Positions 2,400-51,973 of a stretch of DNA of 64,000 nucleotides are shown in pieces. Where the stretch lies: the NCBI GenBank assembly GCA_045631185.1, contig JAZQUH010000039.1, forward strand, positions 139,740 through 203,739, in the 5' to 3' direction. Position numbers and translations under genes: made by a program. Below the pieces are notes generated by a model that saw only the letters and a program-made list of their open reading frames with translations, did no database searches and was not told the origin of the DNA. The stretch comes from Alphaproteobacteria bacterium (GTDB lineage Bacteria; Pseudomonadota; Alphaproteobacteria; CAAHEQ01; UBA3637). Numbering within the stretch: position 1 is the stretch's first letter; every line of letters begins with the position of its first letter.

Positions 2400-2693
2400 A
2401 TGCGGGAACCAATTTTGAAAGCGGTTTGTGTGCCCCCCAGACTTTTTTGGGCGCCAGCTATTATAGCTGGAGCAAATTTGATTGTTCAGTTTTCTTTGAT
2501 GTTAATGTGGGTTGGTTTAACTGGTCGCTCTATTATGCCTTTTATGTTTTCTATACCTATAGTTCATGCAATGATTGCGGTTTGGGGCAAAAAAGAGCCG
2601 CATTTGTCTAGGATTTTGATTTCATGGGGACAATCAGGTGCAACAAGTACCAAAAATGTTTATCGTTGTCGAGGAACAAAGTTTGCTCCATAA
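2400..2693 (+). CDS. virB3: type IV secretion system protein VirB3
   Basis: 97-aa two-TM protein directly upstream of virB4. PILKAV..PPRLFWAP motif region is like VirB3. Confidence 0.7.
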   Translation: MREPILKAVCVPPRLFWAPAIIAGANLIVQFSLMLMWVGLTGRSIMPFMFSIPIVHAMIAVWGKKEPHLSRILISWGQSGATSTKNVYRCRGTKFAP

Positions 2694-2707
2694 AAAAAAG
2701 GAATAAA

Positions 2708-5176: not shown

Positions 5177-6985
5177 TTGACAACATTATTGATTTCATCA
5201 TCTATGGTTTATGCGGGATGGATAGCCACTGGTATAGATTATAAAGGTGATTGTTTGGAAATGATGTGCGATTGTGTGGAAGACAGTGAAACAAGAGATG
5301 GATATTGTTGTCCCAATGGTACCGCTTTTGCCAATACGGGAAATCCTCATCCCACTTATACACCCTGTAAATGTCCTGAAAATTTGTCATGGGATAGTAC
5401 TTTATCCCAATGTGTGGAGTGTTTGACAGATACGAATTGTGATGAAGGTGTTTCTTGTAATATTTTAACAAAGGTATGTTGTCCGGCCGAAACACCCAAA
5501 TGGGATAGCGTTCAACAAAAATGTGTGGAATGTTTATCAGATTATGGTTCGGGTGAGCAAAATGCCTGTTCTGAAGAAAAGCCGATTTGTGATACATCAG
5601 ATTATATTTGTAAATCTTGTGCTGAATTGGATCCGTTGAAACCGTATTGGGATGAAAATACAAAAATGTGCGTTCAATGTTTGGATAATTACGGTTCAGA
5701 TGAAGGTTTGGGTTGTGTATCCGAAGAAAAACCCCTTTGTGACACAACGGATTATACCTGTAAAACTTGTGCTGAGGCGGATCCGACAAAACCGTATTGG
5801 AACGCAAAGTTGGGCCAGTGTGTGGAATGTGTGCAAGATGATCAATGTCCAACGCCCAGTGATTCCAAAAATGATGCCGTATGTTTTAACGGAACATGTC
5901 AAGAATGCCCCAAACGAATTGAAATTGTCGCAAAAAAAGTTGGCACTTCAGGAGGTTCCCATGCGGGCAGTTCTGTCTTTAAAGCAGGTTTGTACGGTCA
6001 TGAATATTGTTCTTATGATTTACATTTAAAAGGATATGCATTAAGTCAGAGTCTTTCTTTAACTTTTACCGGCGATGTTGAAACAATTCGTGAAACAACA
6101 TACGGATGCTGGAAATGTTGTAACAGTCGGACTTTTGATGGGGGTGTTTACCACAGATTACATCCCGGCACTTATTTTAAAACGTTTTGGCAATATTCGG
6201 ATTATGGTAAACATTGTAATTATTTAACCTTTACAATGGATGAAGCATATTTGGAAAGAGTTCCAAATTGTACGGATTGTACATATAAATCCGGTGTTGA
6301 TCCATCGTTCACCTATGAACAATGTGCCAATCAATTGGATCGTTATTTTAAAGATGGCAAGTGTTATGCCTGTCCGGCGGGTACAAGATCAAATGCCGAT
6401 CATACGGAATGTTTATGTGAAAAGGGTAATTATTTGTCTGGTGAAAAGTGCTATTCATGCACGGATGGAACCTATAAAAAAACAACCGAAGCGGCCTGTT
6501 ATGCCAAATGTCCGAAGGATACCCGTATGTGGAGTAAGTATGGTGGTTATAATTACTGTTTTGATTGTAATTATTCTGGCGGTATTTACGCATGGTTCAC
6601 CAAAGAAGAATGCAACCACTGTCCGAACAGATACTTTAAAGACGGTAAGTGTTCATTGTGTCCGGCTAATTCTAAGCCGAATGCGGATAACAGCGATTGT
6701 GTCTGTAACGAGGGTTATTATATGTCTAATGGTGCTTGCTATTCCTGTACGGATAAAACTTACAGGGCAGCAACCGAAGCAGCCTGTTATAATACCTGTC
6801 CGGATAATACCCGTCTGTGGCGCAAAACAAACGGTTATTGCTTTGATTGTAATTATGCCTCAGTTATAACTTCTGCCACTAAAGAAGAATGCAATCATTG
6901 TCCAAACCGATACTTTAAAGACGGCCAATGTTCGTTGTGTCCAAAGGGAAAAAAGCCTAATTCAGACAGAACAGATTGCGAGTAG
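5177..6985 (+). CDS. cysteine-rich repeat protein (CVEC-type 49-aa repeats plus ephrin-receptor/furin/VSP-like 93-96-aa repeats), probably secreted
   Basis: Long ORF with a very high Cys content and CxxC spacing, with internal tandem repeats. The true start may be upstream at in-frame CTG 5159, which would give the signal peptide (M)KHLSLLTTLLISSSMVYA. Confidence 0.7.
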   Translation: MTTLLISSSMVYAGWIATGIDYKGDCLEMMCDCVEDSETRDGYCCPNGTAFANTGNPHPTYTPCKCPENLSWDSTLSQCVECLTDTNCDEGVSCNILTKVCCPAETPKWDSVQQKCVECLSDYGSGEQNACSEEKPICDTSDYICKSCAELDPLKPYWDENTKMCVQCLDNYGSDEGLGCVSEEKPLCDTTDYTCKTCAEADPTKPYWNAKLGQCVECVQDDQCPTPSDSKNDAVCFNGTCQECPKRIEIVAKKVGTSGGSHAGSSVFKAGLYGHEYCSYDLHLKGYALSQSLSLTFTGDVETIRETTYGCWKCCNSRTFDGGVYHRLHPGTYFKTFWQYSDYGKHCNYLTFTMDEAYLERVPNCTDCTYKSGVDPSFTYEQCANQLDRYFKDGKCYACPAGTRSNADHTECLCEKGNYLSGEKCYSCTDGTYKKTTEAACYAKCPKDTRMWSKYGGYNYCFDCNYSGGIYAWFTKEECNHCPNRYFKDGKCSLCPANSKPNADNSDCVCNEGYYMSNGACYSCTDKTYRAATEAACYNTCPDNTRLWRKTNGYCFDCNYASVITSATKEECNHCPNRYFKDGQCSLCPKGKKPNSDRTDCE

Positions 6986-30234: not shown

Positions 30235-30286
30235 ATTTTAACAACTGATGGGGAAGAGTTATCTGACCCAAAAGAAAGGATATAAT

Positions 30287-31702
30287 ATGTATAACCCTAG
30301 ATCACCCAAAGCGGTGGATTTTATTGATAATCAAGAAGTTTTAGATACACTTGATTATGCCGAAAAAAATAAAACAAACAAAGAACTTATCAATCAGATT
30401 TTAGATAAAGCAAAGCAGTTGAGGGGATTGAATCATCGGGAAGCTTCTGTTATGCTTGCTTGTGAAATCCCTGAGGTAAATGCCGAAATTTTTCGTTTAG
30501 CTGAACAAATAAAAAAAGATTTTTATGGTAACAGAATAGTCTTATTTGCTCCGCTTTATTTATCAAATTATTGTGTCAATGGATGTGTTTATTGTCCTTA
30601 TCATTTAAAAAATAAACATATGCCACGTATAAAACTGACGCAAGAACAAATTCGTCAGGAAGTTATTGCCTTGCAAGATATGGGACATAAACGTTTGGCG
30701 ATTGAAACTGGTGAAGATCCTGTGAATAATCCGATAGAGTATGTGTTAGATAGTATTAAAACCATTTATTCCATTAAGCATAAAAATGGTTCTATTCGTC
30801 GGGTTAATGTCAATATTGCGGCAACAACTGTTGAAAATTACAGGAAATTAAAAGATGCAGGTATCGGAACTTATATTTTATTCCAAGAAACCTATAATCG
30901 TGAATCCTATGAAAAACTTCATCCAACAGGACCAAAGCATGATTATGCATGGCACACTGAGGCTATGGACAGAGCGATGCAGGGGGGAATAGATGATGTT
31001 GGTTTGGGGGTTTTATTTGGATTGGAATCGTATCGTTATGAATTTGCAGCACTTTTAATGCATGCTGAACATTTGGAGGCTTGTTTTGGTGTTGGTCCAC
31101 ATACCATTTCTTTTCCACGCATCAAAAAAGCCGATGATATAGATCCGAAAGCTTTTGATAACGGAATAGACGATGATATTTTTGCAAAAATAATCGCTTG
31201 TGTCCGAATTTCAACACCTTATACAGGAATGATTATTTCAACTCGAGAAAGTCAGTCATGTCGTGAGCGGGTTATTCGTTATGGTATTTCTCAAATTTCT
31301 GGTGCATCTCGTACTTCTGTTGGTGGGTATACACAACCTCAGCGTTCTCATGATTCGGAACAATTTGATGTATCCGACCAACGAACGTTGGATGAGGTTG
31401 TACATTGGTTGTTACAGATGGGGTATATTCCCAGTTTTTGTACTGCCTGTTATCGAGCAGGCAGAACAGGTGATCGTTTTATGTCTCTGTGTAAAAGTCG
31501 TCAAATTTTAAATTGTTGTCATCCGAATGCTTTGATGACATTAAAGGAATTTTTATTAGATTATGCTAGTTTTGAAACGCAAATGATTGGTGAAAAAGTT
31601 ATTCAGGAACAGTTGGAGAATATCACTAACGAAGCTGTTAAAAATATCACTATGCGTAATTTGGCCAAAATAGATTCTGGCGAAAGAGATTTTCATTTTT
31701 AA
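30287..31702 (+). CDS. hydG: [FeFe]-hydrogenase maturase HydG (radical SAM tyrosine lyase)
   Basis: CVNGCVYC (Cx3Cx2C) and C-terminal CTACYRAG...C cluster motif. About 470 aa. Start at ATG 30287 after aaaggat. Confidence 0.85.
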   Translation: MYNPRSPKAVDFIDNQEVLDTLDYAEKNKTNKELINQILDKAKQLRGLNHREASVMLACEIPEVNAEIFRLAEQIKKDFYGNRIVLFAPLYLSNYCVNGCVYCPYHLKNKHMPRIKLTQEQIRQEVIALQDMGHKRLAIETGEDPVNNPIEYVLDSIKTIYSIKHKNGSIRRVNVNIAATTVENYRKLKDAGIGTYILFQETYNRESYEKLHPTGPKHDYAWHTEAMDRAMQGGIDDVGLGVLFGLESYRYEFAALLMHAEHLEACFGVGPHTISFPRIKKADDIDPKAFDNGIDDDIFAKIIACVRISTPYTGMIISTRESQSCRERVIRYGISQISGASRTSVGGYTQPQRSHDSEQFDVSDQRTLDEVVHWLLQMGYIPSFCTACYRAGRTGDRFMSLCKSRQILNCCHPNALMTLKEFLLDYASFETQMIGEKVIQEQLENITNEAVKNITMRNLAKIDSGERDFHF

Positions 31703-31719
31703 AATAAAAAAGGATATTG

Positions 31720-32907
31720 ATGAATTGTTTATCATTAAATGAAACCCCTAAAGGTTTATGTCCTGTCATTTCCTTTATCGGTTGTTGTAATGTGGGTAAA
31801 TCTTCTTTGTTAAATGCTTTGACAAAAGAAGAAGTTTCAATTGTGTCTGAAATTAAAGGAACAACGACGGATGTTGTCCAAAAAAGGCATGAGTTAATTC
31901 CTGTGGGACCGGTTATATTTTATGATACAGCAGGTTTGGATGATACAAGTGATTTAGGGGAAAAACGCATACATGCGACAATGAAGGTTTTGGAAAAATC
32001 AGATTTAGTTGTTTTAATTTGTGCCGAAAAAGGAATTACAAAAACAGATAGTTTAATGATTAAAAAACTTAGATTAAACAGAAAAAAATTTGTTATTATC
32101 TTTAATAAGGATGATTGTGTTGTCCCACAAAAAAAAGATTTATCATTCTGTGAAGAACACCAAATTCCTTTTATAAAAACGAATGTTAAAAAGGATATTT
32201 CTTTCCTATATCATTTTTTGGCGGGTCAGATAGATTCGGAAGATATGGATTTATTTGGAAAATTTTTAAAAAAAGAAGATATTGTAATATTGGTTACACC
32301 TATAGATAAATCAGCCCCTAAAGGCCGCTTAATTTTACCTCAGGTTCAAACAATACGTGAAATTTTAAATAAACATGCCATAACAATAACAGCTCAACCG
32401 TCGGAATTAGTATCAACTTTAAACTGTTTAATCAGGAAACCCCGTTTAATTATATCTGATTCTCAAGTTGTAAAACAAGTTTCTCAACTTATTTCTTGTG
32501 ATATTTCTTTAACAACGTTTTCGGTTCTAATGGCAAAATTAAAAGGAGATATATCTGTTTTTAAAAAAAGTTTATCTGTTTTAAATCACTTAAATGATGG
32601 TGATAAAATTTTAATTTGTGAATCTTGTTCCCATAAAATTTGTTCAGACGATATTGCACATGTAAAAATACCAAATGCAATTAGAACTTATAGCAAACAT
32701 GATATCATTTTTGATTATACACATGGGGGTGATTTTCCTGAAAGTTTATCTGGGTATAAATTAGTTGTCCATTGTGGCGCCTGTATGTTTAATAAAACGC
32801 AAATGATGGCACGTATACAACAATGTTTAAGGGAAAATGTTCCCATTACAAATTTTGGGCTTCTTATGGCCAAACTTAATAACATTCATTTGGCGGATAT
32901 TTCATGA
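31720..32907 (+). CDS. hydF: [FeFe]-hydrogenase maturation GTPase HydF
   Basis: G1 GCCNVGKSSLLNAL, DTAG, NKDD. C-terminal CxH...HCxxC (CESCSH ... VHCGAC). Confidence 0.85.
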   Translation: MNCLSLNETPKGLCPVISFIGCCNVGKSSLLNALTKEEVSIVSEIKGTTTDVVQKRHELIPVGPVIFYDTAGLDDTSDLGEKRIHATMKVLEKSDLVVLICAEKGITKTDSLMIKKLRLNRKKFVIIFNKDDCVVPQKKDLSFCEEHQIPFIKTNVKKDISFLYHFLAGQIDSEDMDLFGKFLKKEDIVILVTPIDKSAPKGRLILPQVQTIREILNKHAITITAQPSELVSTLNCLIRKPRLIISDSQVVKQVSQLISCDISLTTFSVLMAKLKGDISVFKKSLSVLNHLNDGDKILICESCSHKICSDDIAHVKIPNAIRTYSKHDIIFDYTHGGDFPESLSGYKLVVHCGACMFNKTQMMARIQQCLRENVPITNFGLLMAKLNNIHLADIS

Positions 32908-33872
32908 CGTTGACAGAAGAAGAAATCGTATCTTTGTTAGTTGATTCAAAAAATCAACATCAATTATTCAAAAAGGCAGATCAAGTCAGACAGGAAAATG
33001 TTGGTAATTCTGTTTTATTAAGAGGATTAATAGAATTTTCAAATAGTTGTAAAAATAACTGTTTGTATTGTGGCTTGAGAAAAGATAATATTCAACTCAA
33101 ACGTTATAACCTTTCACAAGAGGATGTATTATGTTTGGTAAAAAATGCTGTTCAATTAGGCTTAAAAACAATAGTTTTTCAATCCGGGGAAAATTTTGTA
33201 TATTCATGTGATAAATTATGCCGAATAATTGAGCAAACAAAAAAATTTGGTGTTGCGGTTACATTAAGTATTGGCGAAAAAAGTTATCAGGAATATAAAG
33301 CGTTTCGAGATAGTGGTGCAGATCGGTATTTAATGCGTATAGAAACGACAGATCAAAAAGTATATCATGATTTAAACCCGGGTATGAGTTGGCAGCATCG
33401 TTATGAATGTTTACAAATGATTAAAGAACTTGGATATGAGTTGGGTTCAGGAATAATGGTTGGTTTACCCAGGCAAACATTAAAATCAATAGCACGTGAT
33501 TTGTTGTTTTTGAAAAAGTTGAAAATTGATATGGCAGGGATAGGACCATTTATTCCTCATCCTTGTACACCATTAAGTGATTGCAAGGCGGGAACATTGG
33601 ATTTAGCTTTAAGGACGATGGCAATTATGCGCATTTTATTACCACATATCAATATACCTGCAACAACGGCAATGGAAAATATAAATAAAAATGGCCAAAT
33701 AAAAGCATTGCAATCAGGGGCAAATGTTATCATGCTTAATGCAACTGATTCTTTACATCGTTCTTTATATGAAATTTATCCATCTGATAAATCCTACTAT
33801 GATACCTTATCAGATAATTATTTTGATTTAAAATGGAAAATTTATGCTATAGGGCGAAAAATAGATGGTTGA
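32904..33872 (+). CDS. hydE: [FeFe]-hydrogenase maturase HydE (radical SAM)
   Basis: CKNNCLYCGLR Cx3Cx2C near the N-terminus, BioB-like fold length (322 aa). ATGA overlap with hydF. Confidence 0.8.
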   Translation: MTLTEEEIVSLLVDSKNQHQLFKKADQVRQENVGNSVLLRGLIEFSNSCKNNCLYCGLRKDNIQLKRYNLSQEDVLCLVKNAVQLGLKTIVFQSGENFVYSCDKLCRIIEQTKKFGVAVTLSIGEKSYQEYKAFRDSGADRYLMRIETTDQKVYHDLNPGMSWQHRYECLQMIKELGYELGSGIMVGLPRQTLKSIARDLLFLKKLKIDMAGIGPFIPHPCTPLSDCKAGTLDLALRTMAIMRILLPHINIPATTAMENINKNGQIKALQSGANVIMLNATDSLHRSLYEIYPSDKSYYDTLSDNYFDLKWKIYAIGRKIDG

Positions 33873-34652: not shown

Positions 34653-36728
34653 TTATTTCAACAACATTTTGAAGTCCACCACAACGGCACGGTCTTTTGT
34701 GACCAATACAGGGTTGCCGTCAATGGATGTGATTTCGGGAATTTCCAAAACCAACTTTTGAACTTTTGCCAATGTATCGGCCAACGGTCCGACGGCTTTT
34801 GGATCTTCGCCACGCACACCATTCAAGATGGTACCGACTTTTGTTTCCTTAATCATGGCATCAAAGTCATTGGCGGGCAAGATACGCATTGTTGTATCAC
34901 GCATGACTTCGGTATAAATACCGCCTGTACCGAACACCAACACACGGCCGAAGTTCTTATCGGAATTGACGCCGATAATTGTTTCGGTGGCTTTGGTAAT
35001 CATTTCTTGAATCAAGACGCTGGCACCTTTTAATTCAAACTTGGCGATTGTGGCTGTCAAAGCATCAAAGGCTTCGTTGAATTTTTCTTCGGAATCAATG
35101 TTCAAATAGATACCCTTCATTTCTGTTTTATGTAAGGCATCAGGGGCCGACAATTTCAACACGACAGGGAAGATATTTTTGGCAAAGGCCAAAGCTTCGG
35201 CTTTATCGGTAAAGTTACCGCATTTCGGATAATCAATACCATAATGATCCATAATCATGTTCATTGTGGATTGCGGTAAAGAGGCCAAACCTTCGGAAAC
35301 GGCAGAAGCAACAGCGGCTTTAATATCGGCCGGCACTTCGCTTGTTTCAACTTTCACATCGGGCAATCCTTTGAATGCCATTTGGGCTTTCATCAAGCCG
35401 AGCAAACGGATACAGTCTGTCGGATAATCATAGGCCAAAATCTTGGCGTTTTTCAATAATTGAACGGCTTCACGCACACGGGAACCACCTATGAAAGAAC
35501 AATAGATATTGACGTTTTTATATTGTTCGGCCATTTTGATAACAGCTTGGGCTGTTTCAACGGGTTCTGTGGACATTTGCGGTGTCAACAACACGATGAT
35601 GTTTTTGTATTCACCGGATTCACACAACACACGCAAAGCATTTTCATAACGGTCTGCCTTGGCATCACCCACCACGTCAATGGGGTTACCGACGGAAGCT
35701 TCAGCGGTTAAAACGGCACGCAAAGCTTCAATTGTTTTTTCGGACGGTCTGGCCAAATCCAACTTGGCTTCTTCGCACAAATCAGAAGACAACACACCCA
35801 CACCACCGGCGTTTGTTAAAATACCGACAGCACCGCCAAAGTCTGTGTGATTAACGTTTTGCAATAATTCCAAAGCACCAAATAATTCACGGGTTGTATA
35901 AACTTGGATAGCACCACTGCGTTGCAAAGCAATTTCCAACACACGATAGTTGGGGGCCAAAGAACCTGTATGGGACAAGCTGGCTGCTTGGGCTTTGCTG
36001 GATTTACCCGGTTCCATAATTACACACGGTTTTGTTTTGGAAACTTCTTTCAATACACGCAAAAATTCCTGACCTTTTTTCAATCCTTCCAAATAGAACA
36101 CAAAAGCCTTGGTGTTTTCGTCATGTTGAATGAAGTCCAACAAGCTGGCTTCGTTCAAATCTGCTTTGTTACCCACGGAAATAAAGTGAGAAAAGCCAAT
36201 GCCTTTTTCTTCGGCCCAATCCAAAATCGCACTGCAATAAGCACCGGATTGAGAAATAAAGGCCACATTACCCTTTAATGGGAAGCAAGGTGCAAAAGAA
36301 GCATTTAATTTATCAAAAGTGGAAATATGTCCCAAACAGTTCGGACCCAACACATTGATACCGGCATCCAAACATTTTTTGGCAATTGTCAATTCCAATT
36401 CTTTATTACCGACTTCACCAAAACCGGCGGTAATAATGCTGATGTTTTTGGCACCGTTGGCGATGGCATCATCCACGGCCGCTTCACAAAAACGGGCCGG
36501 CACCAACAATACAACCAAATCAACGGCTTCGGGAATATCACGCACGGAGGCAAAGCATTTTTTACCTTTTAATTCCTGACCGGCCAATTTGGGATTCACT
36601 CCGTATAAATTGCCTTCAAAACCGGCATCAATCAAGTTATTAAAAACGACCGCGCCCAATTTGGATTCATCGGCCGAAACACCAACAACCGCCACGGATT
36701 TCGGTGCAAAGAATGTATTTAAAGACAT
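34653..36728 (-). CDS. ADP-forming acetyl-CoA synthetase (acetate--CoA ligase, fused alpha-beta, NDP-forming acyl-CoA synthetase family)
   Basis: N-terminal CoA-binding FFAPKSVAVVGVS...KLG. Succinyl-CoA-synthetase-like ligase domain with the phospho-His region SLSHTGSLA. C-terminal ATP-grasp domain. 691 aa. Confidence 0.8.
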   Translation of the reverse strand: MSLNTFFAPKSVAVVGVSADESKLGAVVFNNLIDAGFEGNLYGVNPKLAGQELKGKKCFASVRDIPEAVDLVVLLVPARFCEAAVDDAIANGAKNISIITAGFGEVGNKELELTIAKKCLDAGINVLGPNCLGHISTFDKLNASFAPCFPLKGNVAFISQSGAYCSAILDWAEEKGIGFSHFISVGNKADLNEASLLDFIQHDENTKAFVFYLEGLKKGQEFLRVLKEVSKTKPCVIMEPGKSSKAQAASLSHTGSLAPNYRVLEIALQRSGAIQVYTTRELFGALELLQNVNHTDFGGAVGILTNAGGVGVLSSDLCEEAKLDLARPSEKTIEALRAVLTAEASVGNPIDVVGDAKADRYENALRVLCESGEYKNIIVLLTPQMSTEPVETAQAVIKMAEQYKNVNIYCSFIGGSRVREAVQLLKNAKILAYDYPTDCIRLLGLMKAQMAFKGLPDVKVETSEVPADIKAAVASAVSEGLASLPQSTMNMIMDHYGIDYPKCGNFTDKAEALAFAKNIFPVVLKLSAPDALHKTEMKGIYLNIDSEEKFNEAFDALTATIAKFELKGASVLIQEMITKATETIIGVNSDKNFGRVLVFGTGGIYTEVMRDTTMRILPANDFDAMIKETKVGTILNGVRGEDPKAVGPLADTLAKVQKLVLEIPEITSIDGNPVLVTKDRAVVVDFKMLLK

Positions 36729-38942: not shown

Positions 38943-39859
38943 TGACCCCTCAAATTGATGCTTTTTTGGAAATGATGCAGGCACAACGGGGAGCTTCCGT
39001 CAATACTTTATCGGCCTATCGGCGTGATATGTATTTGTTGGATGAATATCTGTTGTCGCATCATTCGGGTTTGTTAAAAGCCACCGAAGATGATTTAAAA
39101 TCTTTTTTAAAGTTTTTAATGAATACGGGGGATTCGGTGCGCACTCGTGCCAGACGATTGTCCTGTATTCATGAATTTTATCGTTTTGCCTATTCGGAAG
39201 GGTGGATAAAGGTCAATCCGTCTGATTATTTACAAGGTCCGAAATTGCCCCAAACGTTACCCAAATACCTGACGGAAGATGAAATTTTTTTATTGATTCA
39301 GCAAGCCCGTGAAAACAATAAGCGCCTGTATGTATTGTTGGAGCTTTTATATGCCACCGGCATGCGTGTCAGCGAATTGGTTGGCTTGCCGTTGGGGGCT
39401 TTTGTGCCTGATGAACGGCATTTATTGATTTTGGGTAAAGGCGGGCGAGAACGAATCGTTCCGCTAAATGATTATGCAATTGATGCTTTGATTCAATGGA
39501 AACAAATACGTGAAAATGATTTGCCCTATAACCGCAAAAGCAAATGGTTGTTTCCTTCCAAAAGTTGCTTGGGGCATTTAACACGGGATACGTTTTTTAA
39601 AGAATTAAAAAAATTGGCTTTGCTTGTCGGATTGAATCCGGATAAGGTTTCGCCACATGTCTTTCGCCATTCTTTTGCCTCACATTTGGTGGCCCATGAT
39701 GCGGATTTGCGTTCCGTTCAACAAATGTTGGGCCACTCGGATATATCCACAACACAAATTTATACGCACATTTTACCCGACAGATTAAAAAAGATTGTTG
39801 AAAAATCTCATCCTTTGTCGTATAATGGAGCGAGGAAAAAAAATGAAGATAGCGGATAA
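38942..39859 (+). CDS. xerD: site-specific tyrosine recombinase XerD
   Basis: LSAYRRD, GPKLPQTLPKYL, ATGMRVSELVGL, HVFRHSFASHL, LGHSDISTTQIYTH. Confidence 0.9.
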   Translation: MTPQIDAFLEMMQAQRGASVNTLSAYRRDMYLLDEYLLSHHSGLLKATEDDLKSFLKFLMNTGDSVRTRARRLSCIHEFYRFAYSEGWIKVNPSDYLQGPKLPQTLPKYLTEDEIFLLIQQARENNKRLYVLLELLYATGMRVSELVGLPLGAFVPDERHLLILGKGGRERIVPLNDYAIDALIQWKQIRENDLPYNRKSKWLFPSKSCLGHLTRDTFFKELKKLALLVGLNPDKVSPHVFRHSFASHLVAHDADLRSVQQMLGHSDISTTQIYTHILPDRLKKIVEKSHPLSYNGARKKNEDSG

Positions 39860-42800
39860 ATACATTTTACGGCAACTGATTGTCGGCTTTTTATTGGTTT
39901 TAACCTGTATGACCATGCTGGTTTGGTTGACTCAATCGTTGCGTATGATTGATATGATTGTCACCAATGGCGTTTCTGTGGGTGTGTTTTTAAAAATGAG
40001 CCTTTTGGTTTTACCGCACTTTATGCAAATTTTAATGCCGTTAGCCTTGTTTGCGGTTGTTTTGTTTGTTTTTATTCGTATGCAATCGGACAAAGAATTG
40101 ATGGTTTTAAAGGCGGTCGGGATGGGCCCTTATCAGTTGATGAGCCCTGTTTTGAAGATGGCCGGCGTATTGGTGATAATCGGTTATTTCCTTTCATTGT
40201 TCTTGGTGCCGTATTCCGAAAATCAGGTGCGTGAAATGAAATGGAAAGTGCGCAATAATTTATCGCATGTGATGTTACAGGAAGGCCAATTTAATACCTT
40301 TAAAAAAGGAATGATGATTTATATCCGTGAACGTATGCCCAATGGTGCGATTAAGGGGATTTTGGCCTATGAAATGAAAGACGGTAAAAAATCCACTTTG
40401 ATTGCCGATGAAGGGACATTGTATCAATCCCCCGATGGGATAGAGGTTGTCTTTGGTCAAGGTGCCCGTCAAGAGTATAATCCCGAAACAAAACAATATT
40501 CTGTTTTAAAATTTGATAAATATACCGTTGCTTTGAATGATAAAAATCAATCGTCCGGTACACGCACACAAAAGGTCAAAGAATTGCCCTTTACACAATT
40601 ATTGACAATGAAGCGGGATGAAGCGCCCAATGAATCCACATGGCGTAAATATAAGGTGGAAGCGTTCAAACGTTTAACCCAACCGCTTTACAGCATTATT
40701 TTTGCTTTGTTGGCGTTGGTGGGGGTTATAACGGGCTATTATAACCGTCGCGGACAACCCATTCGTGTGAATGCGGTTGTGGGTTCGGCTTTATTGATTC
40801 AAACATTGGCTTTGGCCTTTGAAAATATTGCGGGTAAAAATTTATGGGGTTTGCTGTTGATGACTTTGAATATCGTGCTTCCATTGTGGATAATGGTGGG
40901 TATCTTTAAAAAAGAAAGTGGTCCCAAAGTGCCCAAAAAATATAAATATATGCTTCGTTTTGTGTTTTTGTTCGGGCTTTTATTTTCCGTTCAATCTTAT
41001 GCTTTTTCGGATATAGATACATCGGCCTTTAATAAAGATCAGCCCGTTGATTTTGAAGCCGATCATGTTTCCTATGATCAAAAGCAACAAACAATGACGG
41101 CTTCGGGCAATGTTGTATTGAAACAAAACGGTATTGTTTTTAATACGGATAAAATTTTGTATAATCAAAAATCCGATATGATTCATATCCCCGGTGAAGC
41201 CACAATGGTTTTGCCTGACGGTAATTCTTCGCTGGTGCGTGATATTCAAATTAAAGCCCATGGTGATGAAGTAAAAACAGGTAAAGGCAAGATGGATATG
41301 GCTGATGGAACGCACTTGTGGGCCAATCAAATTGTGCGTCAGGACGGTAAAGAAAATATCTTAAAGGATGCTTTTTATACACCATGTGAAATGTGTGAAA
41401 ATTCTTCACCTTTGTGGCAAATTCATGCCAGCTCGATTGAACAGGATGAAGAATCCCATATGATGCGTTTTTGGAATACCCGTGTTGAATTGAAAAATGT
41501 ACCGGTTTTATATTTTCCGTATTTTCAAATTCCCGATTATACAGTTAAGCGTCAAACAGGTTTTTTAACACCGACTTTTGGCAGTGATTCCGAATTAAAG
41601 GCTTATGTGAAAGCGCCGATTTTTGTGGATTTAGCCGAAAATCAAAATTTAACCATTACGCCGGTTGTGTCGTTTTCCCGCAATCCTTTGGGTATTTTGG
41701 ATTATCAGGGGCTGTTTTCAAAAGGTAAAGTTGAATTACAAACCAGTTATACCAAAGATGATGATGACAGAAAACAGGGACATATCCAATCCAGCTTTGA
41801 ATATGATATCAATGATTCTTGGCGTTTAACGGGGGGCTATAATCGTACTATTACGGATACTTATTTCCGTCGTTATAATGTGTTGGATGTGGATACCAGC
41901 CAATCTTTTTTAACCTCCCATTTAACGGGTGAATACTATGGTAATCGATTGTACGGTAACGCCACACTTTACAATTTCCAAAGTTTACAAGAAGGCGTCC
42001 GTTCTGAATCAATACCTGTAATTTTACCCGTCTTTAACATGCGTTATACGACAAAGCCCTTTACACAACAGGGCGGTATTATGTATTCGGATATCAATGG
42101 CGCCTTTATTAATGATCGCAATCATTTTAAATCCAACCGTTTGTCATTGACTCAGGGGATTTCGTTGCCGTATAAAACAAGTTTTGGTTTGATGACACAA
42201 CTTTCCGGATCCGTGCGTATGGATGGATACAGTGTGGATACAGGATTGACCGATATGGGCCCCCGTGCTCAGGATTCTTATTTTACGGGTCGTGTTTTTC
42301 CCCAGGCTGTGTTAAAGATAAGCTATCCGTTGATAAAAAAGAATGCTGAATATGCTCAGGTTTTGGAACCGATTGTCATGATAGTCGCATCTCCTAACGG
42401 CTCTAATCCCGATAAGATTCCCAATGTGGATAGTTCCGTTTTCGACTTTGATGATGTGAATTTGTTTTCACCCAACCGTTATATGGGATATGATAAAGTG
42501 GAATCCGGTTCGCGCATAAACTATGGTGTGCAATGGACTTTATACCAAACGGACAAAAAACGTTCCATTCAGGCTTTGTTGGGGCAAAGTATTCGTTTGC
42601 GTGAAAAAGACGAATTGGATGATGCCATGGGCTATGATGGCCATTTTTCCAGCTATGTCGGTCGTTTACAGTTAAATTATGATTATTTGACATTGGCCTA
42701 TCGTTTCCGTATGGCACAGGAAAGTTTTGAAGCACAAAAAAATGATATATCTGTTGAAGCGGGTTCATCTCCGCTCAGAATCGGATTGAATTACCTGTTC

Positions 42801-43091
42801 CAGGATTCTTTCCGTTTTGGGGATGTTTATTCAACTGCCAAAAAAGAAGTGTCGGTATATGCACGTTCTCGTTTGACCAAAAATTGGTCATTGGAAGGGC
42901 GTTATCGTTATAATTTATTAAAATCCGACAGGGGACCACTGGAAACATACGGTATTTTGCGCTATGATAATGAATGTGCCGCTGTTGAATTTGAGGCCAG
43001 TAAATCCTATACGCATGATCGCAACTATAAAGGCGATACCTCAATTACAATGCGCTTTTACTTAAAAACTTTGGGAGGATTCGGACAATGA
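39843..43091 (+). CDS. lptD: in-frame fusion of an LptF/LptG-family LPS export permease (residues ~1-369) with LPS-assembly protein LptD (from internal Met at 40950)
   Basis: YjgP/YjgQ-type six-TM N-terminal part (MKIADKYILRQL...). Then KKYKY-MLRFVFLFGLLFSVQSYA|FS, a signal-peptide-like segment. Then the OstA N-domain (VDFEADHVSYD...) and a long beta-barrel region. No stop codon between the parts. Confidence 0.75.
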   Translation: MKIADKYILRQLIVGFLLVLTCMTMLVWLTQSLRMIDMIVTNGVSVGVFLKMSLLVLPHFMQILMPLALFAVVLFVFIRMQSDKELMVLKAVGMGPYQLMSPVLKMAGVLVIIGYFLSLFLVPYSENQVREMKWKVRNNLSHVMLQEGQFNTFKKGMMIYIRERMPNGAIKGILAYEMKDGKKSTLIADEGTLYQSPDGIEVVFGQGARQEYNPETKQYSVLKFDKYTVALNDKNQSSGTRTQKVKELPFTQLLTMKRDEAPNESTWRKYKVEAFKRLTQPLYSIIFALLALVGVITGYYNRRGQPIRVNAVVGSALLIQTLALAFENIAGKNLWGLLLMTLNIVLPLWIMVGIFKKESGPKVPKKYKYMLRFVFLFGLLFSVQSYAFSDIDTSAFNKDQPVDFEADHVSYDQKQQTMTASGNVVLKQNGIVFNTDKILYNQKSDMIHIPGEATMVLPDGNSSLVRDIQIKAHGDEVKTGKGKMDMADGTHLWANQIVRQDGKENILKDAFYTPCEMCENSSPLWQIHASSIEQDEESHMMRFWNTRVELKNVPVLYFPYFQIPDYTVKRQTGFLTPTFGSDSELKAYVKAPIFVDLAENQNLTITPVVSFSRNPLGILDYQGLFSKGKVELQTSYTKDDDDRKQGHIQSSFEYDINDSWRLTGGYNRTITDTYFRRYNVLDVDTSQSFLTSHLTGEYYGNRLYGNATLYNFQSLQEGVRSESIPVILPVFNMRYTTKPFTQQGGIMYSDINGAFINDRNHFKSNRLSLTQGISLPYKTSFGLMTQLSGSVRMDGYSVDTGLTDMGPRAQDSYFTGRVFPQAVLKISYPLIKKNAEYAQVLEPIVMIVASPNGSNPDKIPNVDSSVFDFDDVNLFSPNRYMGYDKVESGSRINYGVQWTLYQTDKKRSIQALLGQSIRLREKDELDDAMGYDGHFSSYVGRLQLNYDYLTLAYRFRMAQESFEAQKNDISVEAGSSPLRIGLNYLFQDSFRFGDVYSTAKKEVSVYARSRLTKNWSLEGRYRYNLLKSDRGPLETYGILRYDNECAAVEFEASKSYTHDRNYKGDTSITMRFYLKTLGGFGQ

Positions 43092-46479: not shown

Positions 46480-49173
46480 TCAAGTTTGAGGTTGTGATTT
46501 TGATGGATTTGGTTCAGGTGCACAAAGTAGTTCAGCTAAGCGATTTGCAATTGATTCTTTAGGAATCTGAACCGTAAAGTGATATTGCTGATCTGAATGT
46601 ACCTTTGATAAATCAAGGCCTGAATTTTGGTCCGCCCAAACAAAACAGTTTTTATCTGATGCCTTTTTACAGCATCCGGTATTACTTACTGTATTTGCCG
46701 GAACAACGCCATCAGAGAGGAAGAATAGAATAGAATTTTTTTGTCCGCACATAGTCTTGATTTCATTTTGAGCTTTTGAAAAACAAGTTTGCCCGTTACG
46801 TCCTCCCACTGTGCAATTATAAGCACAAAGACTTTGATCTAGGTTATAACCTTTTTGGCTAAAAGGATTAATGGTCGTATTATATTTGTTTCCCATACAT
46901 TTTTGTCCTGAGATCTCATTTTCTTCTGAGCCTTTATTATCCTCACGGAATATACCAATTTGAATGTCTTCGTTCACTTCTTCAATTGTTTGTATAATTT
47001 TATTTGTCAGGGTATTTCTATATCCATCAAAGCCATTAAAATAGGTTGAATAAGAATAATCAAGTAATAATGCAACGGAAATAGATTCGTTCGCTTCACA
47101 AATTCGTATACATTTATATTCTCCATTAACCAATTTGGCGGTTTGACCTCTTGGACAACAAATATACACTTGGTTATTGTCAGTGTCATTTGTTACGCGT
47201 GTCCAAAAATCTTCAGCAGTACTACATACACACATTAATAACTCATCGCTCCATTGTAAACCATCATCACATTGACAAGTTCCATTAACACATTTTGTTT
47301 GTCCGGTTCTTAAATGTTCTTCGTTTAGACAGTGCGAATCTGATTGACAACCGCACAAATGCGTTTCTAAGCATTTTGTTCCATCAATATTTCCTTCACA
47401 ATCAACGTCAGTTTCGCATCCGCAAAGTCCATTTTCCATGCATAAAATTCCCGGAGGACAATCTTCATTGACCTCGCAAGGACCGCATGTTCCTTTCGTT
47501 GCTTCACTTGTACGACATACCAAGCTACGATATTGTATACCTAGATTTTGGCATTCTTGCGTTGTTTCACATGGTTGGCATGTATCGTGTTCTTCTGGAT
47601 GTTCAGCATCTGTAGGAACACAAATAGGTGTTCTAATTGTTTCAAGGGCTGTCGGAGAGATGCCCGGAGTGAAACAATCTAAATGCTTTTCTTCATAGCA
47701 ATGCCTATTGAAGCGATCCATTTTATCTTCACCACATGATTTTCTTAAATCATGAAGACAAGGTCTGCAAATTCCAGCATCGCAATAATAATTTTCAGGG
47801 CAATCTTCATCTACTGAACAACCACCACAGGTGGAAACCCCATTGACTTCAACGCATTCTGAAGCGCAACATTGTCCATTGCAACAAAAAGTTTTATCAG
47901 AAGGACAACATTTTTGATTGCAACAATTATCTGATTCACAATCGCTGTTTTGGCTACAATTTTTGCATATTCCGTCTTCACAAATCTGACCGCTTGGACA
48001 ACAAACGCCTTGGCAGCAAACACTTGTATCAGAACAATCTTCATCTGTAGTACAGCCATTTCTTTCTGAACAACGTTTTACGCCATCAACGTTTTTGCAA
48101 TATGCTGTTATTCCCAAATGACTGCAATTACAGTTTGCGCTGCACGTTTCTCCCATACTTCTTGGTTGGCATTCGCATAATCCATTTACGATTTTGAAAA
48201 ATCCATTTGTTTCATCACAAGGAACACATTCATGATTTTCGTTGCAAAATGTACCTAAACCAACACCTGTTGAATTTGTACACTGTTCTCCAATATTTCT
48301 ACATTCAACACATTTTTCATTAACACATTCTGGTTTGGCAGGATCTGTACATTGCGTGTTGTTAATACACTCTACACAACGATTATCATCTTTACAATAT
48401 CGTCCGTTTTGACATCCACCACACAAACCACAATTTATGTCAGTACTATCACAACATTGTCCAATTCTGTCTTCTGTTTTGTTTTCAGGGCAATTATGAC
48501 ATTTTCCTCCATAAAAATATGCACAATCTTCACTTACTTTTCCAGCTCCATAAACAAATAATTGATTTCCTGTATCACATAATTTTTTTATTGCACTCGG
48601 ATTCTTTTTTAAATAATCAGGTGTGAAAGCATAAACATTTTCATCTAAATCTGTAATTAATTTAACATCATTTCCATCCATAGGATTTATGTTTTCAGGC
48701 GTAACAGTATTGGGAAAATTTAATACGGTATTGTCATTTTCTAATTGTTTTGCAGGAATTGCTAATGAAAAACCCCCAGCGTATGCCACTTCCTGACAAG
48801 AAATAGGATTTATATTAGAAGATAGAACAATAAAACTTGTTGAATCAGCATATTTATATAACTTGACCTGACCTCCATCTGCTGTTTGGGCGCAAGTTGA
48901 ATCGACTGCACATTTTTTTGCTTCTGGATAAACTTCTGTTATTTTGATCCGTCCAGCCTGTCCTGAATCTTTAACTTGTAAGCGGGAGCTTTTGTAACGT
49001 ACTCCTATTGTTGTTATTTGCTTTGCTGTTTCTTTGTATTTTAGGTAATCGAATAGCAACTTAAGACCTACAAGGGCGGAAATCAACAAAATCCCAACAA
49101 TTGCCAATACTGCAATCACTTCAATTAAACTTCTGCCTTTTTCGTTTGTTTTTTTTAACTTTGAATAAAACAT
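46480..49173 (-). CDS. prepilin-like N-terminus + cysteine-rich stalk + C-terminal vWA/MIDAS-like module (897 aa)
   Basis: MFYSKLKKTNEKG|RSLIEVIAVLAIVGILLIS. Hundreds of residues of Cys-rich repeats. C-terminal LLLDYSYS ... IQIGIF ... GGRNGQT ... ILFFLSDG. SD aaggagg. Confidence 0.7.
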   Translation of the reverse strand: MFYSKLKKTNEKGRSLIEVIAVLAIVGILLISALVGLKLLFDYLKYKETAKQITTIGVRYKSSRLQVKDSGQAGRIKITEVYPEAKKCAVDSTCAQTADGGQVKLYKYADSTSFIVLSSNINPISCQEVAYAGGFSLAIPAKQLENDNTVLNFPNTVTPENINPMDGNDVKLITDLDENVYAFTPDYLKKNPSAIKKLCDTGNQLFVYGAGKVSEDCAYFYGGKCHNCPENKTEDRIGQCCDSTDINCGLCGGCQNGRYCKDDNRCVECINNTQCTDPAKPECVNEKCVECRNIGEQCTNSTGVGLGTFCNENHECVPCDETNGFFKIVNGLCECQPRSMGETCSANCNCSHLGITAYCKNVDGVKRCSERNGCTTDEDCSDTSVCCQGVCCPSGQICEDGICKNCSQNSDCESDNCCNQKCCPSDKTFCCNGQCCASECVEVNGVSTCGGCSVDEDCPENYYCDAGICRPCLHDLRKSCGEDKMDRFNRHCYEEKHLDCFTPGISPTALETIRTPICVPTDAEHPEEHDTCQPCETTQECQNLGIQYRSLVCRTSEATKGTCGPCEVNEDCPPGILCMENGLCGCETDVDCEGNIDGTKCLETHLCGCQSDSHCLNEEHLRTGQTKCVNGTCQCDDGLQWSDELLMCVCSTAEDFWTRVTNDTDNNQVYICCPRGQTAKLVNGEYKCIRICEANESISVALLLDYSYSTYFNGFDGYRNTLTNKIIQTIEEVNEDIQIGIFREDNKGSEENEISGQKCMGNKYNTTINPFSQKGYNLDQSLCAYNCTVGGRNGQTCFSKAQNEIKTMCGQKNSILFFLSDGVVPANTVSNTGCCKKASDKNCFVWADQNSGLDLSKVHSDQQYHFTVQIPKESIANRLAELLCAPEPNPSKSQPQT

Positions 49174-49186
49174 TTATCCTCCTTCT

Positions 49187-51973
49187 TTATGAGCTTGTTT
49201 TACAGGAAGCTTGAATACTACATGCAGCACATTTATTAGTAAAGTCAAGACTTATATGGTAAGTGTGTCCCTTTTCTAGGGTGAGTGTTTTACTGATATT
49301 TGTTCCAACATCTCCATTTCTTAAATCTAAAAGGTAAGTATGGCTGTCTTTGTCATAAACAGAAAAATGTACAAACGAAGTAATTGATATTACATTGATT
49401 GATAATTCCATATCTGTATCGGAATCCACAAAGAAATCGGAATTGTCATACCATTCCCAACGATCAGAGTATTCTCTTTTATTTCCAAATGATTGACCAA
49501 TGCAACATGCCGTTCCGTCAGAATTACAGGAGCTGTTACAACATTTTGTTCCACAGCATTTTTTCATATTTGCCGAACAACATTTTTCATCACATACTAA
49601 TTTTCTACTCGGATTTAACCAACGACATTCAGCTTTGGTTTCATCCCATGTTTGACAGGCGTTACAAGAATCACATTGGTTGGTTGGTTTTTCACCATCT
49701 GTTAATGGACAATAATCTTCTGTGACTGTTTGACATTCTCCTTCAACAACTTTTGTATATGTAACAGTTGTTTTATGGCTTAAAGGGGCTTTTTTACCAC
49801 AAATGTCTTCATCACCATCTAAGGCGCAACATTCTATTCCTTCACAACTTTGAGTTGGGCAGGGTTTACATGTTTTTGTGGTTATATCACAATAGGTATC
49901 ACCTTCGCAGTCTGTATCTTCATTACAGCCTACACAAGTTGTTCCGTTTGTATCACAAACTTTTAAACTGGAATTACTTGCAGGCGGACAAGAGAATGCT
50001 TCTGTTTTCAGACATCCTTTATAAAGGGGAGCATTATTAGGATAATATTCATCTTCTTTTATGTTACAACTGCGATTAAAATTGGGACATTCCCGACATG
50101 TTGCATCATCACACCATGCATTTTCTTCACAGGTAATTGCTTTTGTTTTTAAACAACCTGCATAAAGTTGAATGTCAGAAAAATACTCATCTTCAGAAAT
50201 ATCGCAGCTTTCGTTTGGGACTGGACAATTTGAACAAGTGCCATCATCTGTACAATATTGATTTTCAGCACATGTTACAGCAGTTTTTATCAAACAACCT
50301 TGGGCATCATAAATATCTCCTTGACAGGAAGTTCCAGATGGTTCTGGGCAGCATTTGTTTCCATTTTCACCGGTTGGACGACATTGTGTTCCGTTTTTAC
50401 ATTGATTAGGACAAACGTCTTCGCCTGCGCAAGATTCACCATGGTTTAAACTATTTTGGGGCAAACATAAGCATTTATTTTGCTCACATTTAAGACCTTC
50501 CGAACAACCACATTCAGATATACAAGTTTCATCTTTTTTCGGTGATACATCACTACATTGGCATACACCTTCATCTTGTCCGTTTGACGAACAGCTTAAT
50601 CCGAAGCCACAACCACATTCTCCCCAACAAGGATCATTTCTTTTTACTGGTAAGGCGCCGCAACGGCAAAAACCGCTTTGACATGTTAAGGCATTAGTTA
50701 AGCAAGGACAACCTAAATTACATTTATCTCCCAAATATCTTGTTTCTGTGAAACCATTTTCTGTACAATTTGCTTCTTCACAAATCCCATTATTGCAATA
50801 TAACCCTTCTTCACAACTATCACACGCTAAGTTGCATTCTTCTCCGACTTTCGCTTTTGGTCCATTTGGGCATTGACATTGGTTGTCTATACAATCATAA
50901 CCAGTGGCACATTTATCAGGACATAACGGATATGTTGTAACATCACAAGCTTCTCCTCTTGCAATGGGTAATTGATCGCTGTTGCGGCAAATGCATTCTT
51001 GTAAAGAGGTATCCCAATATTTCCCATCACTTTCTTTACAATCATGGGATTCACATTCCAAATCATTATTACACCATTCACCTAAAATAACACCGCCGGA
51101 AGAATCTCGGCAAGGATCACCAACATGTTTGCAGGGTTTACATGTACCATCAGGACTACAATAAGGTCTATCCGGATTTTGACAATCGCTATCTTCTAAA
51201 CATTCTACACAACTGTCATACTTTGTTGAACAAAGTTTTCCTGTGGGACATCCGCCACACAAAGAACATGAAAGATTGGTTTCAATACAACAGTTTCCGT
51301 TTTTATCTTCAATTTCGCCTTGTGGGCAGTTGTGGCATTTTCCATCATAAAAATAACAATCATCTGTTTGTAAATCTTTCCCTGAATCATTTCCACCATA
51401 AATAAACAGGTGAATATTATATGAACAAAAATCCTTTAATTTTTCAGGGTTGGTACGCAATTCATCTGCCGTAAAATATTTTTGTGTTTGGTCCTCTTCT
51501 TTTGTAAAAACTCGACCTTCTCCTAAAAAATCATAAAAATTTTGGTCAGCTGTTGTTACTTGTGCGAAAGCCCCCTGTAAGATTGCTTCTTCACATGTCG
51601 TTGGTTTAATATTTTTGGTGACAACAACAAAAGAATTTGTATCCTGATATGAATAAAGTCTTAATTCGCCCCCATCAGGCAGTTGTGAACAGGTATTATC
51701 GTTGGGAGAATTAGCACATTTATTTCCTTCTGGGAAAACACGTTTCAGACTAACCATTCCGCTATCTTTTGTTGTGCCTCCCAATCGTTCTGATTTATAA
51801 CGAAGTCCAATGGTTGATATTTGTTTTGCGGATTCCTTTGTTTTTAAATAATCCAATAAAAATCTGAAACCGATTAATGCCCCGATCAATAATACCCCCA
51901 TAATTGCCATAACAGCAATTATTTCCATCATACTTCGGCCTGCTTCATAATAACGATTCTGTGTTTTACGCAT
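49187..51973 (-). CDS. prepilin-like N-terminus + cysteine-rich stalk protein (928 aa), paralogue of the downstream gene
   Basis: MRKTQNRYYEAG|RSMMEIIAVMAIMGVLLIG. The first ~200 aa are paralogous to the 897-aa protein. SD gaggggg. Confidence 0.7.
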   Translation of the reverse strand: MRKTQNRYYEAGRSMMEIIAVMAIMGVLLIGALIGFRFLLDYLKTKESAKQISTIGLRYKSERLGGTTKDSGMVSLKRVFPEGNKCANSPNDNTCSQLPDGGELRLYSYQDTNSFVVVTKNIKPTTCEEAILQGAFAQVTTADQNFYDFLGEGRVFTKEEDQTQKYFTADELRTNPEKLKDFCSYNIHLFIYGGNDSGKDLQTDDCYFYDGKCHNCPQGEIEDKNGNCCIETNLSCSLCGGCPTGKLCSTKYDSCVECLEDSDCQNPDRPYCSPDGTCKPCKHVGDPCRDSSGGVILGEWCNNDLECESHDCKESDGKYWDTSLQECICRNSDQLPIARGEACDVTTYPLCPDKCATGYDCIDNQCQCPNGPKAKVGEECNLACDSCEEGLYCNNGICEEANCTENGFTETRYLGDKCNLGCPCLTNALTCQSGFCRCGALPVKRNDPCWGECGCGFGLSCSSNGQDEGVCQCSDVSPKKDETCISECGCSEGLKCEQNKCLCLPQNSLNHGESCAGEDVCPNQCKNGTQCRPTGENGNKCCPEPSGTSCQGDIYDAQGCLIKTAVTCAENQYCTDDGTCSNCPVPNESCDISEDEYFSDIQLYAGCLKTKAITCEENAWCDDATCRECPNFNRSCNIKEDEYYPNNAPLYKGCLKTEAFSCPPASNSSLKVCDTNGTTCVGCNEDTDCEGDTYCDITTKTCKPCPTQSCEGIECCALDGDEDICGKKAPLSHKTTVTYTKVVEGECQTVTEDYCPLTDGEKPTNQCDSCNACQTWDETKAECRWLNPSRKLVCDEKCCSANMKKCCGTKCCNSSCNSDGTACCIGQSFGNKREYSDRWEWYDNSDFFVDSDTDMELSINVISITSFVHFSVYDKDSHTYLLDLRNGDVGTNISKTLTLEKGHTYHISLDFTNKCAACSIQASCKTSS

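Follow-up and report, generated by a model that had tools for sequence, protein, structure and literature searches.

The locus and its three-part gene product

The stretch analysed here, referred to as the window throughout, comprises 64,000 nucleotides (positions 139,740 to 203,739 of contig JAZQUH010000039.1, assembly GCA_045631185.1) of an Alphaproteobacteria bacterium. Its reverse strand carries a gene for a protein of 897 residues, which combines a prepilin-like N-terminal module, a long cysteine-rich segment, termed the stalk, and a C-terminal domain, termed the head, that is predicted to adopt the von Willebrand factor A (vWA) fold with a metal ion-dependent adhesion site (MIDAS). A preceding inspection of the letters alone, referred to as the sequence-only reading, had proposed this arrangement and had interpreted it as a tip-displayed adhesin. 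The features of the gene and of two related genes are listed in Table 1.

The open reading frame (ORF) on which this proposal was built is present, and positions 47075-46620 correspond to the codons of residues 700-852. The strings quoted for this segment, VALLLDYSYST, IQIGIFRED, GGRNGQT and NSILFFLSDGVV, are found there exactly. They had been assigned to the last ~150 residues of the protein, a placement that requires correction, because 45 further residues follow and the modelled domain extends over residues ~688-884. That the gene is real is supported by a 99%-identical protein (P0001) encoded on an independent metagenome contig, as well as by diverged orthologues in conserved synteny.

Table 1. 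Positions in the window of the gene, its parts and its relatives (L003 and L007 are the related sequences described below; the slash in the putative peptidase site marks the expected cleavage)
Feature	Position	Strand	Basis
Complete gene (897 aa), coding for the prepilin-like N-terminal module, the Cys-rich stalk and the predicted vWA head	46480..49173	-	ORF list
N-terminal pilin-like module, residues 1-228; conserved family-wide	48490..49173	-	N-terminal alignment, paralogue identity
Cys-rich stalk, residues 229-687; no recognisable domain	47113..48489	-	Cys counts
Predicted vWA-fold head, residues 688-884	46522..47112	-	AlphaFold2 model and Foldseek
Putative prepilin-peptidase site G13/R14-S-L-I-E18	49120..49137	-	Short basic leader MFYSKLKKTNEK before, ~20 hydrophobic residues after
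Putative MIDAS part 1, D705-Y-S707-Y-S709, right after strand β1 (ISVALLL)	47047..47061	-	Family alignment, hhalign, model
Putative MIDAS Thr T796 in G-x-T-x-F, directly before a helix	46786..46788	-	Family alignment, hhalign, model
Putative MIDAS Asp D821 in (hydrophobic strand)-S-D-G	46711..46713	-	Family alignment, hhalign, model
Cys-containing insertion of ~43 residues between β2 and β3, residues 744-786	46816..46944	-	Model secondary structure, conservation
Paralogue in tandem (928 aa with 106 Cys), starting 13 bp upstream; pilin-like module and type of stalk shared with the target	49187..51973	-	ORF list, pairwise comparison
C-terminal head of the paralogue, ~110 aa; conserved	window 49190-49579; L003 7656-8045; L007 5568-5957	- (window)	
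Third pilin-like Cys-rich protein, 422 aa	55918..57186	-	Leader G-R-T-I-L-K; GspG match E 8e-5, below cut-off

Predicted fold of the head

Prediction of the head from its single sequence by AlphaFold2 was of low confidence, with a predicted local distance difference test score (pLDDT) of 31.8. With an alignment of eight head sequences sharing 27-37% identity with the query (A1), the model (m001e7e7cd2fb) reached a pLDDT of 79.7 and a predicted template modelling score (pTM) of 0.83, the pLDDT of the five models ranging from 71 to 80. In the numbering of the 219-residue construct, to which 678 has to be added for the full-length protein, the model starts with a short N-terminal hairpin followed by strand β1 (20-26, ISVALLL), which leads directly into D27-Y-S29-Y-S31. 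A helix (38-55) precedes strand β2 (60-65, QIGIFR), the insertion (66-108) and short strands at 109-117, after which T118, a further helix (121-133), strand β4 (135-142, NSILFFLS) and D143-G follow, while a strand at 165-169 and a final helix at 194-204 form the end of the model. The helix at 121-133 begins 3 residues after the MIDAS threonine (T796 of the full-length protein). As modelled, the five MIDAS residues are placed where the vWA fold requires them, namely at the C-terminal ends of β1 and β4 and in front of the helix that follows β3.

A Foldseek search of the PDB with this model yielded 491 matches, of which the top 50 are all of the vWA type as judged from entry titles and general knowledge of these proteins. 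Among these neighbours are CMG2, mussel PTMP1, TFIIH p44, integrin β1, TRAP, the A1 and A3 domains of von Willebrand factor (vWF) and the I domains of αM and α2, as well as factor B, Rpn10, MDN1-MIDAS, Sec23, Cav α2δ and the pneumococcal pilus adhesin RrgA. The best E-value amounted to 2.2e-5 (CMG2, entry 9doc), probabilities rose to 1.00, and the template modelling (TM) score was 0.55 on target length for entry 1shu. In the second structure library, BFVD, the named matches are nearly all VWFA-domain proteins. On the model, its vWA neighbours in both libraries and the conserved MIDAS residues described below, the proposed vWA/MIDAS-like module at the C-terminus holds up, and it is very likely that the head represents a vWA fold with a MIDAS motif.

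Conservation of the MIDAS residues and profile searches

When 1.84 billion representative proteins were scanned in full with HMMER, seven of them (P0006-P0011 and P0013) emerged as genuine relatives of the head, with E-values of 1e-29 to 1e-5 and identities of mostly 38-41%; an eighth match, P0012, was discarded as a low-complexity repeat protein. In total, roughly 15 billion proteins yielded only about seven distinct relatives, not one of which bears a vWA annotation. Across the eight sequences of A1, only eight columns are invariant, namely Q780, C783, G794, T796, F798, S820, D821 and C884, and L-D705-Y-S707-x-S709 is kept in all seven sequences that cover this stretch. As far as this alignment indicates, and apart from the cysteines, the putative MIDAS aspartate, both serines, the threonine and the second aspartate are the best-conserved features of the head. 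The insertion between β2 and β3 is marked by a conserved F-R-E-D-N in addition to Q780 and C783, and the head as a whole contains 11 cysteines.

The arrangement of the motif is moreover rare by chance. A combined pattern of four hydrophobic residues and DxSxS, followed by GxT and then by four hydrophobic residues and [ST]DG, is found a single time when all six frames of the window are read for ORFs of 100 residues or more (84 ORFs), and shuffling the C-terminal 219 residues 20,000 times never produced it.

The correspondence of columns between the head and established vWA domains was derived with hhalign, which was used for this purpose only. The comparison set (A2) consisted of the αM and αL I domains, vWF A1 and A3, CMG2, the α2 I domain and Escherichia coli YfbK (from NC_000913), and all seven were verified against PF00092 with E-values of at most 1e-20. 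In this alignment, D705, S707 and S709 of the head (D27, S29 and S31 of the construct) fall on D140, S142 and S144 of αM, and S820-D821-G (S142-D143-G144) falls on T-D242-G of αM in every variant. Upon removal of the insertion, G-x-T796 (G116-x-T118) is aligned with the G-x-T209 loop of αM.

Profile searches, which the sequence-only reading had named as a check, did not support a vWA domain at curated thresholds, an outcome that, taken alone, would count against the proposal: the target itself has no vWA match, and its relative P0007 matches PF13519 (VWA_2) below threshold. This profile is matched by two of the eight family members, with a best E-value of 2.8e-4 among the cut domains. In P0007, the match covers model positions 2-106 of 107, from the β1/DxSxS strand through the (S/T)DG strand, with an E-value of 1.3e-3 for the whole protein and 19.8 bits, below the gathering score of 27 bits. 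The sole near-threshold match of the target in Pfam and NCBIfam, Arthropod defensin (E 0.0046), was rejected as a reflection of the cysteine spacing. A word-indexed homologue search returned nothing for the head alone and two fragments only with the family alignment; with the whole protein as query, it returned only the near-identical P0001 and, over the N-terminal half at 26-29% identity, P0002-P0005.

The N-terminal pilin-like module

The protein begins with MFYSKLKKTNEKG/RSLIEVIAVLAIVGILLISAL, the slash marking the putative cleavage site, and thus displays a short basic leader, glycine at -1, glutamate at +5 and ~20 hydrophobic residues. In an alignment of ten N-terminal modules of 26-44% identity (A3), G13, R14 and E18 are invariant. 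The NCBIfam model TIGR02532 (prepilin-type cleavage/methylation) scores 18.1 bits on the N-terminal 235 residues, above its cut-off of 16.3, and PF07963 (N_methyl) matches seven of the ten family members, in each case below threshold. Together, these features uphold the pilin-type N-terminus that had been proposed, with the qualification that the profile cut-off is passed by the module alone. The commonest weak NCBIfam matches to the N-terminal modules likewise are pilin and pseudopilin families (PRK10506, ComGC, ComGD, HpsC and XpsH), and the best PDB matches to the N-terminal segment are pilins, with E-values of about 0.3-1 and coverage of the α1-N segment only. Moreover, P0002, which like P0003-P0005 shares 26-29% identity with the target across the whole local alignment, bears the NCBI name 'MAG: Tfp pilus assembly protein FimT/FimU, partial [Alphaproteobacteria bacterium]'.

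The cysteine-rich stalk

Residues 229-687 comprise 74 cysteines in 459 residues, in accordance with the cysteine-rich stalk of the sequence-only reading. Neither Pfam nor NCBIfam yielded a match to this segment, and no relative was found among PDB sequences. The protein as a whole contains 92 cysteines (10.3%), an even number, and this composition fits an oxidising compartment.

Tandem paralogue, further family members and synteny

The paralogue is 40% identical to the target over residues 11-344, beyond which the C-terminus is unrelated. The head of the paralogue follows the pattern FGNK...W.W.DN...VDS...L.I....GHTY.I..D...C..C.I.A.C, shares 36-52% identity in three genomes and has no match in Pfam. 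The earlier suggestion that the two genes carry different heads is consequently well founded, with no C-terminal similarity between them and with the other head retained in synteny.

Two further sequences document this order. In L003, an alphaproteobacterial metagenome-assembled genome (MAG) of GTDB, a gene for 981 residues is followed by P0008, and in L007, a JGI metagenome contig, a gene for 1020 residues is followed by P0009; in both cases the order is the gene with the paralogue-type head, the gene with the vWA head, and rarA. Both P0008 and P0009 are orthologues of the target, with 34-36% identity over the C-terminal domain and in syntenic position, so that the gene with the other head precedes the vWA-head gene in three related alphaproteobacterial genomes. 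Genome and metagenome scans for further loci yielded only one and two loci; in one of these, L008, the part that was read does not differ from P0009.

A third type of head, of ~150 residues, is found in P0003-P0005 (e.g. L004, 10001-12541), where it likewise follows a pilin-like module and a cysteine-rich stalk and shows the pattern FYIPP...RFCAHYGMHLA...FWLA... By eye these heads recall C-type lectins, a tentative likeness for which Pfam gave no support. The third pilin-like protein of the window, of 422 residues, has lysine where pilins have Glu+5, and comprises a short cysteine-rich segment and a Pro/Lys-rich C-terminal tail.

The neighbours of the vWA-head gene are rarA, folD, surA, der and bamB, and a search for pilus machinery in the flanking regions, both of the window and of homologues, encountered only housekeeping genes and a prophage. 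Promoters and terminators were sought in the operon region, with a result at chance level. Immediately upstream of the window (L009, 1-5400), T7-like capsid, portal (head-tail connector) and nozzle genes were observed together with a repressor-like gene of the S24 peptidase type; these phage genes probably constitute a prophage.

Comparison with known modular pilins and vWA proteins

Among the closest known counterparts is PilB of Streptococcus sanguinis, a bimodular type IV minor pilin that acts as an adhesin and whose vWA module, joined to the pilin module, possesses a MIDAS that is functional (Raynaud et al. 2021, PMC8179133). Its crystal structure is available; it binds metal with micromolar affinity, which is lost in the D319A variant, and it binds fibrinogen and fibronectin (PMC8179133). 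The present protein resembles PilB in its N-terminal prepilin-type module and predicted C-terminal vWA domain with a full MIDAS (D-x-S-x-S, T and D), in the loop or 'arm' insertions that flank the MIDAS, and in the existence of a second modular pilin with another head in the same organism, which is PilC there and the tandem paralogue here. Several differences are evident as well. The modules of PilB are joined by a short loop, whereas 459 residues with 74 cysteines intervene here; the vWA domain of PilB is seen by standard signatures, while the present head is not; and PilB is encoded in the pil locus of a monoderm, whereas the gene described here lies among housekeeping genes of an uncultured alphaproteobacterium. 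In addition, the present leader has arginine at +1, and no sequence similarity between the two proteins emerged from the analysis. Modular type IV pilins are defined by the fusion of a pilin module to a functional module that is not pilus-specific, and such a fusion is what is found here, albeit with a spacer of 459 residues instead of a short linker. According to Raynaud et al., modular pilins are widespread and under-counted, because many of their heads lack signatures (PMC8179133).

CpaL and its orthologue TadG, minor-pilin-like proteins of the Tad pilus in Caulobacter and Aggregatibacter, also combine a pilin-like module with a vWA/MIDAS domain and are predicted to reside at the tip of the Tad pilus (PMC11870444). 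They share with the present protein the alphaproteobacterial pairing of a pilin-like module and a MIDAS-bearing vWA domain. In CpaL, however, the vWA domain directly follows the pilin module, is split by two β-rich domains and belongs to the Tad (Cpa) system, whereas the present vWA domain is terminal, is located behind a cysteine-rich stalk and has no tad genes nearby. No match to the TadE/Tad Pfam families was obtained for the target or for the N-terminal modules, which argues against an assignment to TadG/CpaL.

PilY1 and PilC1 are non-pilin proteins at the tip of type IV pili, which possess an N-terminal vWA domain (with a MIDAS in PilC1 of Kingella) and serve in adhesion or sensing. The likeness consists in a vWA domain at the pilus tip there and the vWA head here. 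Unlike the present protein, they have no pilin module and end in a C-terminal β-propeller, so that the order of domains is reversed. The Pfam family of the PilY1 β-propeller has no match in the target, and its N-terminus is of the prepilin type, both of which argue against membership in the PilY1/PilC group.

With RrgA, SpaC, CMG2, the α-I and β-I domains of integrins and vWF A1/A3, a group that contains its nearest structural neighbours, the head shares the predicted fold, the order of the MIDAS residues and an insertion at the MIDAS face. These proteins differ in belonging to sortase-linked Gram-positive pili or to eukaryotic receptors, and identities amount to 10-14%. Compared with I/A domains, the present head appears trimmed (no clear β4-β5 helix) and contains 11 cysteines.

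Interpretation and alternatives

The combination of pilin-like module, cysteine stalk and vWA/MIDAS head is probably that of an exported modular-pilin adhesin, and the protein most likely belongs with the known modular-pilin adhesins instead of representing a new kind of system. That it actually functions as a filament-displayed adhesin is favoured with somewhat less confidence, and display at the tip is plausible, given the pilin signature and the precedent of related proteins. In the sequence of events envisaged, the pilin-like module (residues 1-228, with its basic leader, G/RSLIE and hydrophobic α1-N helix) would anchor the protein in the inner membrane, and type IV filament machinery would place it in a filament, probably at the tip. 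The disulfide-bonded stalk would project the head away from the cell. By analogy with integrin I domains, CMG2 and PilB, the MIDAS (D705, S707, S709, T796 and D821) would bind Mg2+ or Mn2+, and an acidic side chain of the ligand would fill the remaining coordination position. The insertion between β2 and β3 appears to be placed beside the MIDAS like the specificity-determining loop of integrin β-I domains and the arms of RrgA and PilB (general knowledge and PMC8179133), and because of this placement it would probably shape specificity. The paralogue would present a different head on the same chassis, and the pair would recognise two different ligands.

Several observations weigh against this reading. 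With respect to the head, neither the whole protein nor its last 219 residues gave a vWA match in Pfam or NCBIfam even at E-values of up to 10, and searches of PDB sequences with the head, by phmmer and by a hidden Markov model (HMM) of the family, returned nothing. No family member reaches the curated threshold of a vWA profile (PF00092, PF13519 or PF13768), the hhalign comparison of the head family with A2 was weak (P 8.7e-4, probability 23%), and the AlphaFold2 model is based on only eight sequences. The structural agreement found by Foldseek is moderate (TM 0.43-0.55; root-mean-square deviation 5-7 Å), as is to be expected of a domain with an insertion of 43 residues, an additional hairpin at its N-terminus and a tail at its C-terminus. 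Furthermore, the model is devoid of a clear helix between β4 and β5, and the head would therefore constitute a trimmed, divergent vWA domain.

As regards the filament, the present protein has a 459-residue stalk where known modular pilins have a short linker, and on the whole protein both prepilin profiles remain below their cut-offs (TIGR02532 at 14.7 bits; PF07963 at 17.9 versus 21.2). Type IV pilins usually carry phenylalanine or methionine at +1, the residue that becomes N-methylated. All ten members of the present family instead have arginine at this position, following the leader glycine in G-R-[ST]-x-x-E, and this family-wide arginine is atypical for pilins. Finally, genes for a prepilin peptidase, a secretin, or an assembly ATPase or platform were not seen among the ORFs that were read by eye across the 64-kb window, nor were they found in the 10 kb that precede it or in the Pfam-annotated flanks of the homologues.

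These points bear most directly on the alternative that the head is a vWA/MIDAS domain of a protein that is no filament subunit. The hydrophobic segment would then act as a signal-anchor or export signal, and the product would be a periplasmic protein tethered to the inner membrane, or an adhesin, surface-bound or secreted, that is exported by other means. Such an alternative draws on the absence of genes for pilus or type II secretion system (T2SS) assembly near any family member examined, on the marginal prepilin profile scores and the atypical arginine at +1, and on the lysine at +5 of the 422-residue paralogue. It is nevertheless unlikely: the glycine at -1 and the glutamate at +5 are invariant in ten members at 26-44% identity although a mere membrane anchor would need neither, TIGR02532 exceeds its cut-off on the module, and the commonest weak matches are pilins and pseudopilins. 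Pilin genes, moreover, are often unlinked to their assembly machinery.

A filament-associated vWA protein might also serve mainly in functions other than adhesion, for instance in priming pilus assembly or in mechanosensing, roles that have been put forward for PilY1 and CpaL. These vWA proteins are tied to pilus biogenesis and surface sensing, and disulfides matter for mechanosensing by PilY1 (PMC11870444), a precedent to which the extreme disulfide richness of the target corresponds. The complete and conserved MIDAS, the long spacer and the paralogue with an alternative head fit ligand recognition better, and a priming or sensing role is accordingly rated as quite improbable. Least credible is that the likeness to the motif is coincidental and that a shallow alignment misled AlphaFold2 about another α/β fold or a lineage-specific cysteine-rich domain, a view that can invoke the missing curated-threshold match, the hhalign probability, the single-sequence pLDDT and TM scores of about 0.45-0.55, but which would have to account for two independent structure libraries returning vWA with probabilities of up to 1.00, for five functional residues among very few conserved positions, for a sub-threshold VWA_2 match in a homologue that spans the full model, and for the failure of all shuffles to reproduce the pattern.

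The adhesin reading thus being preferred, its significance lies in the addition of a sequence-cryptic vWA/MIDAS family to the repertoire of modular pilins. A rare head that is invisible to profiles accords with the proposal of Raynaud et al. that counts of modular pilins are too low because the heads escape signature databases (PMC8179133). A stalk of 74 cysteines and a conserved tandem of alternative heads are unusual for pilins and suggest that adhesion in this little-studied alphaproteobacterial lineage is directed at specific ligands. No new mechanistic category is opened thereby, as the concept of a pilin joined to a vWA/MIDAS domain is already known from PilB and CpaL/TadG.

The protein is set apart from the known systems by its profile-invisible head, the 459-residue stalk, the invariant Arg+1, the non-pilus locus, the conserved tandem and its rarity. 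A more far-reaching interpretation, doubtful albeit conceivable, is that these proteins form a class of their own, namely 'stalked' proteins for surface display, in an uncultured lineage assumed to be host-associated or anaerobic. Members of such a class would tentatively consist of a prepilin-like anchor (G/R-S-x-x-E, with an invariant leader), a eukaryote-style disulfide-knotted stalk of several hundred residues and interchangeable heads, for which the cryptic vWA/MIDAS domain, the unknown domain of ~110 residues and the third head of P0003-P0005 would be possible representatives. Their display might, with the same reserve, depend on a dedicated pathway, or on a filament to which the stalk would add an extended tip fibre. 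If this interpretation were true, the protein would not be an ordinary minor pilin but the bacterial counterpart of stalked receptors of the integrin kind.

Further observations in the window

Near the start of the window, a gene for a type IV secretion ATPase of the VirB4/CagE type (PF03135) occupies positions 2624-5143. Directly after it, positions 5177-6985 encode a cysteine-rich protein of 602 residues with weak TNFR/ELAPOR1-like repeats (E 2.6e-4), which is devoid of a pilin-like N-terminus and presumably represents another exported cysteine-rich protein of the same genome.

Positions 30248-33872 and 34653-36728 harbour a trio of HydG/HydF/HydE-like [FeFe]-hydrogenase maturases, recognised by eye, and an ADP-forming acetyl-CoA synthetase, the latter assigned from the precomputed Pfam families of an identical gene in L001. 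These genes would suggest an anaerobic, fermentative lifestyle of this low-GC (~38%) alphaproteobacterium.

On the forward strand, positions 39795-43091 form one ORF of 1098 residues, in which an LptF/LptG permease (PF03739) is combined with LptD (PF04453). The same fusion, of 1092 residues, is encoded in the related contig L007 (12025-15303), and it would unite inner- and outer-membrane components of lipopolysaccharide transport in a single polypeptide.

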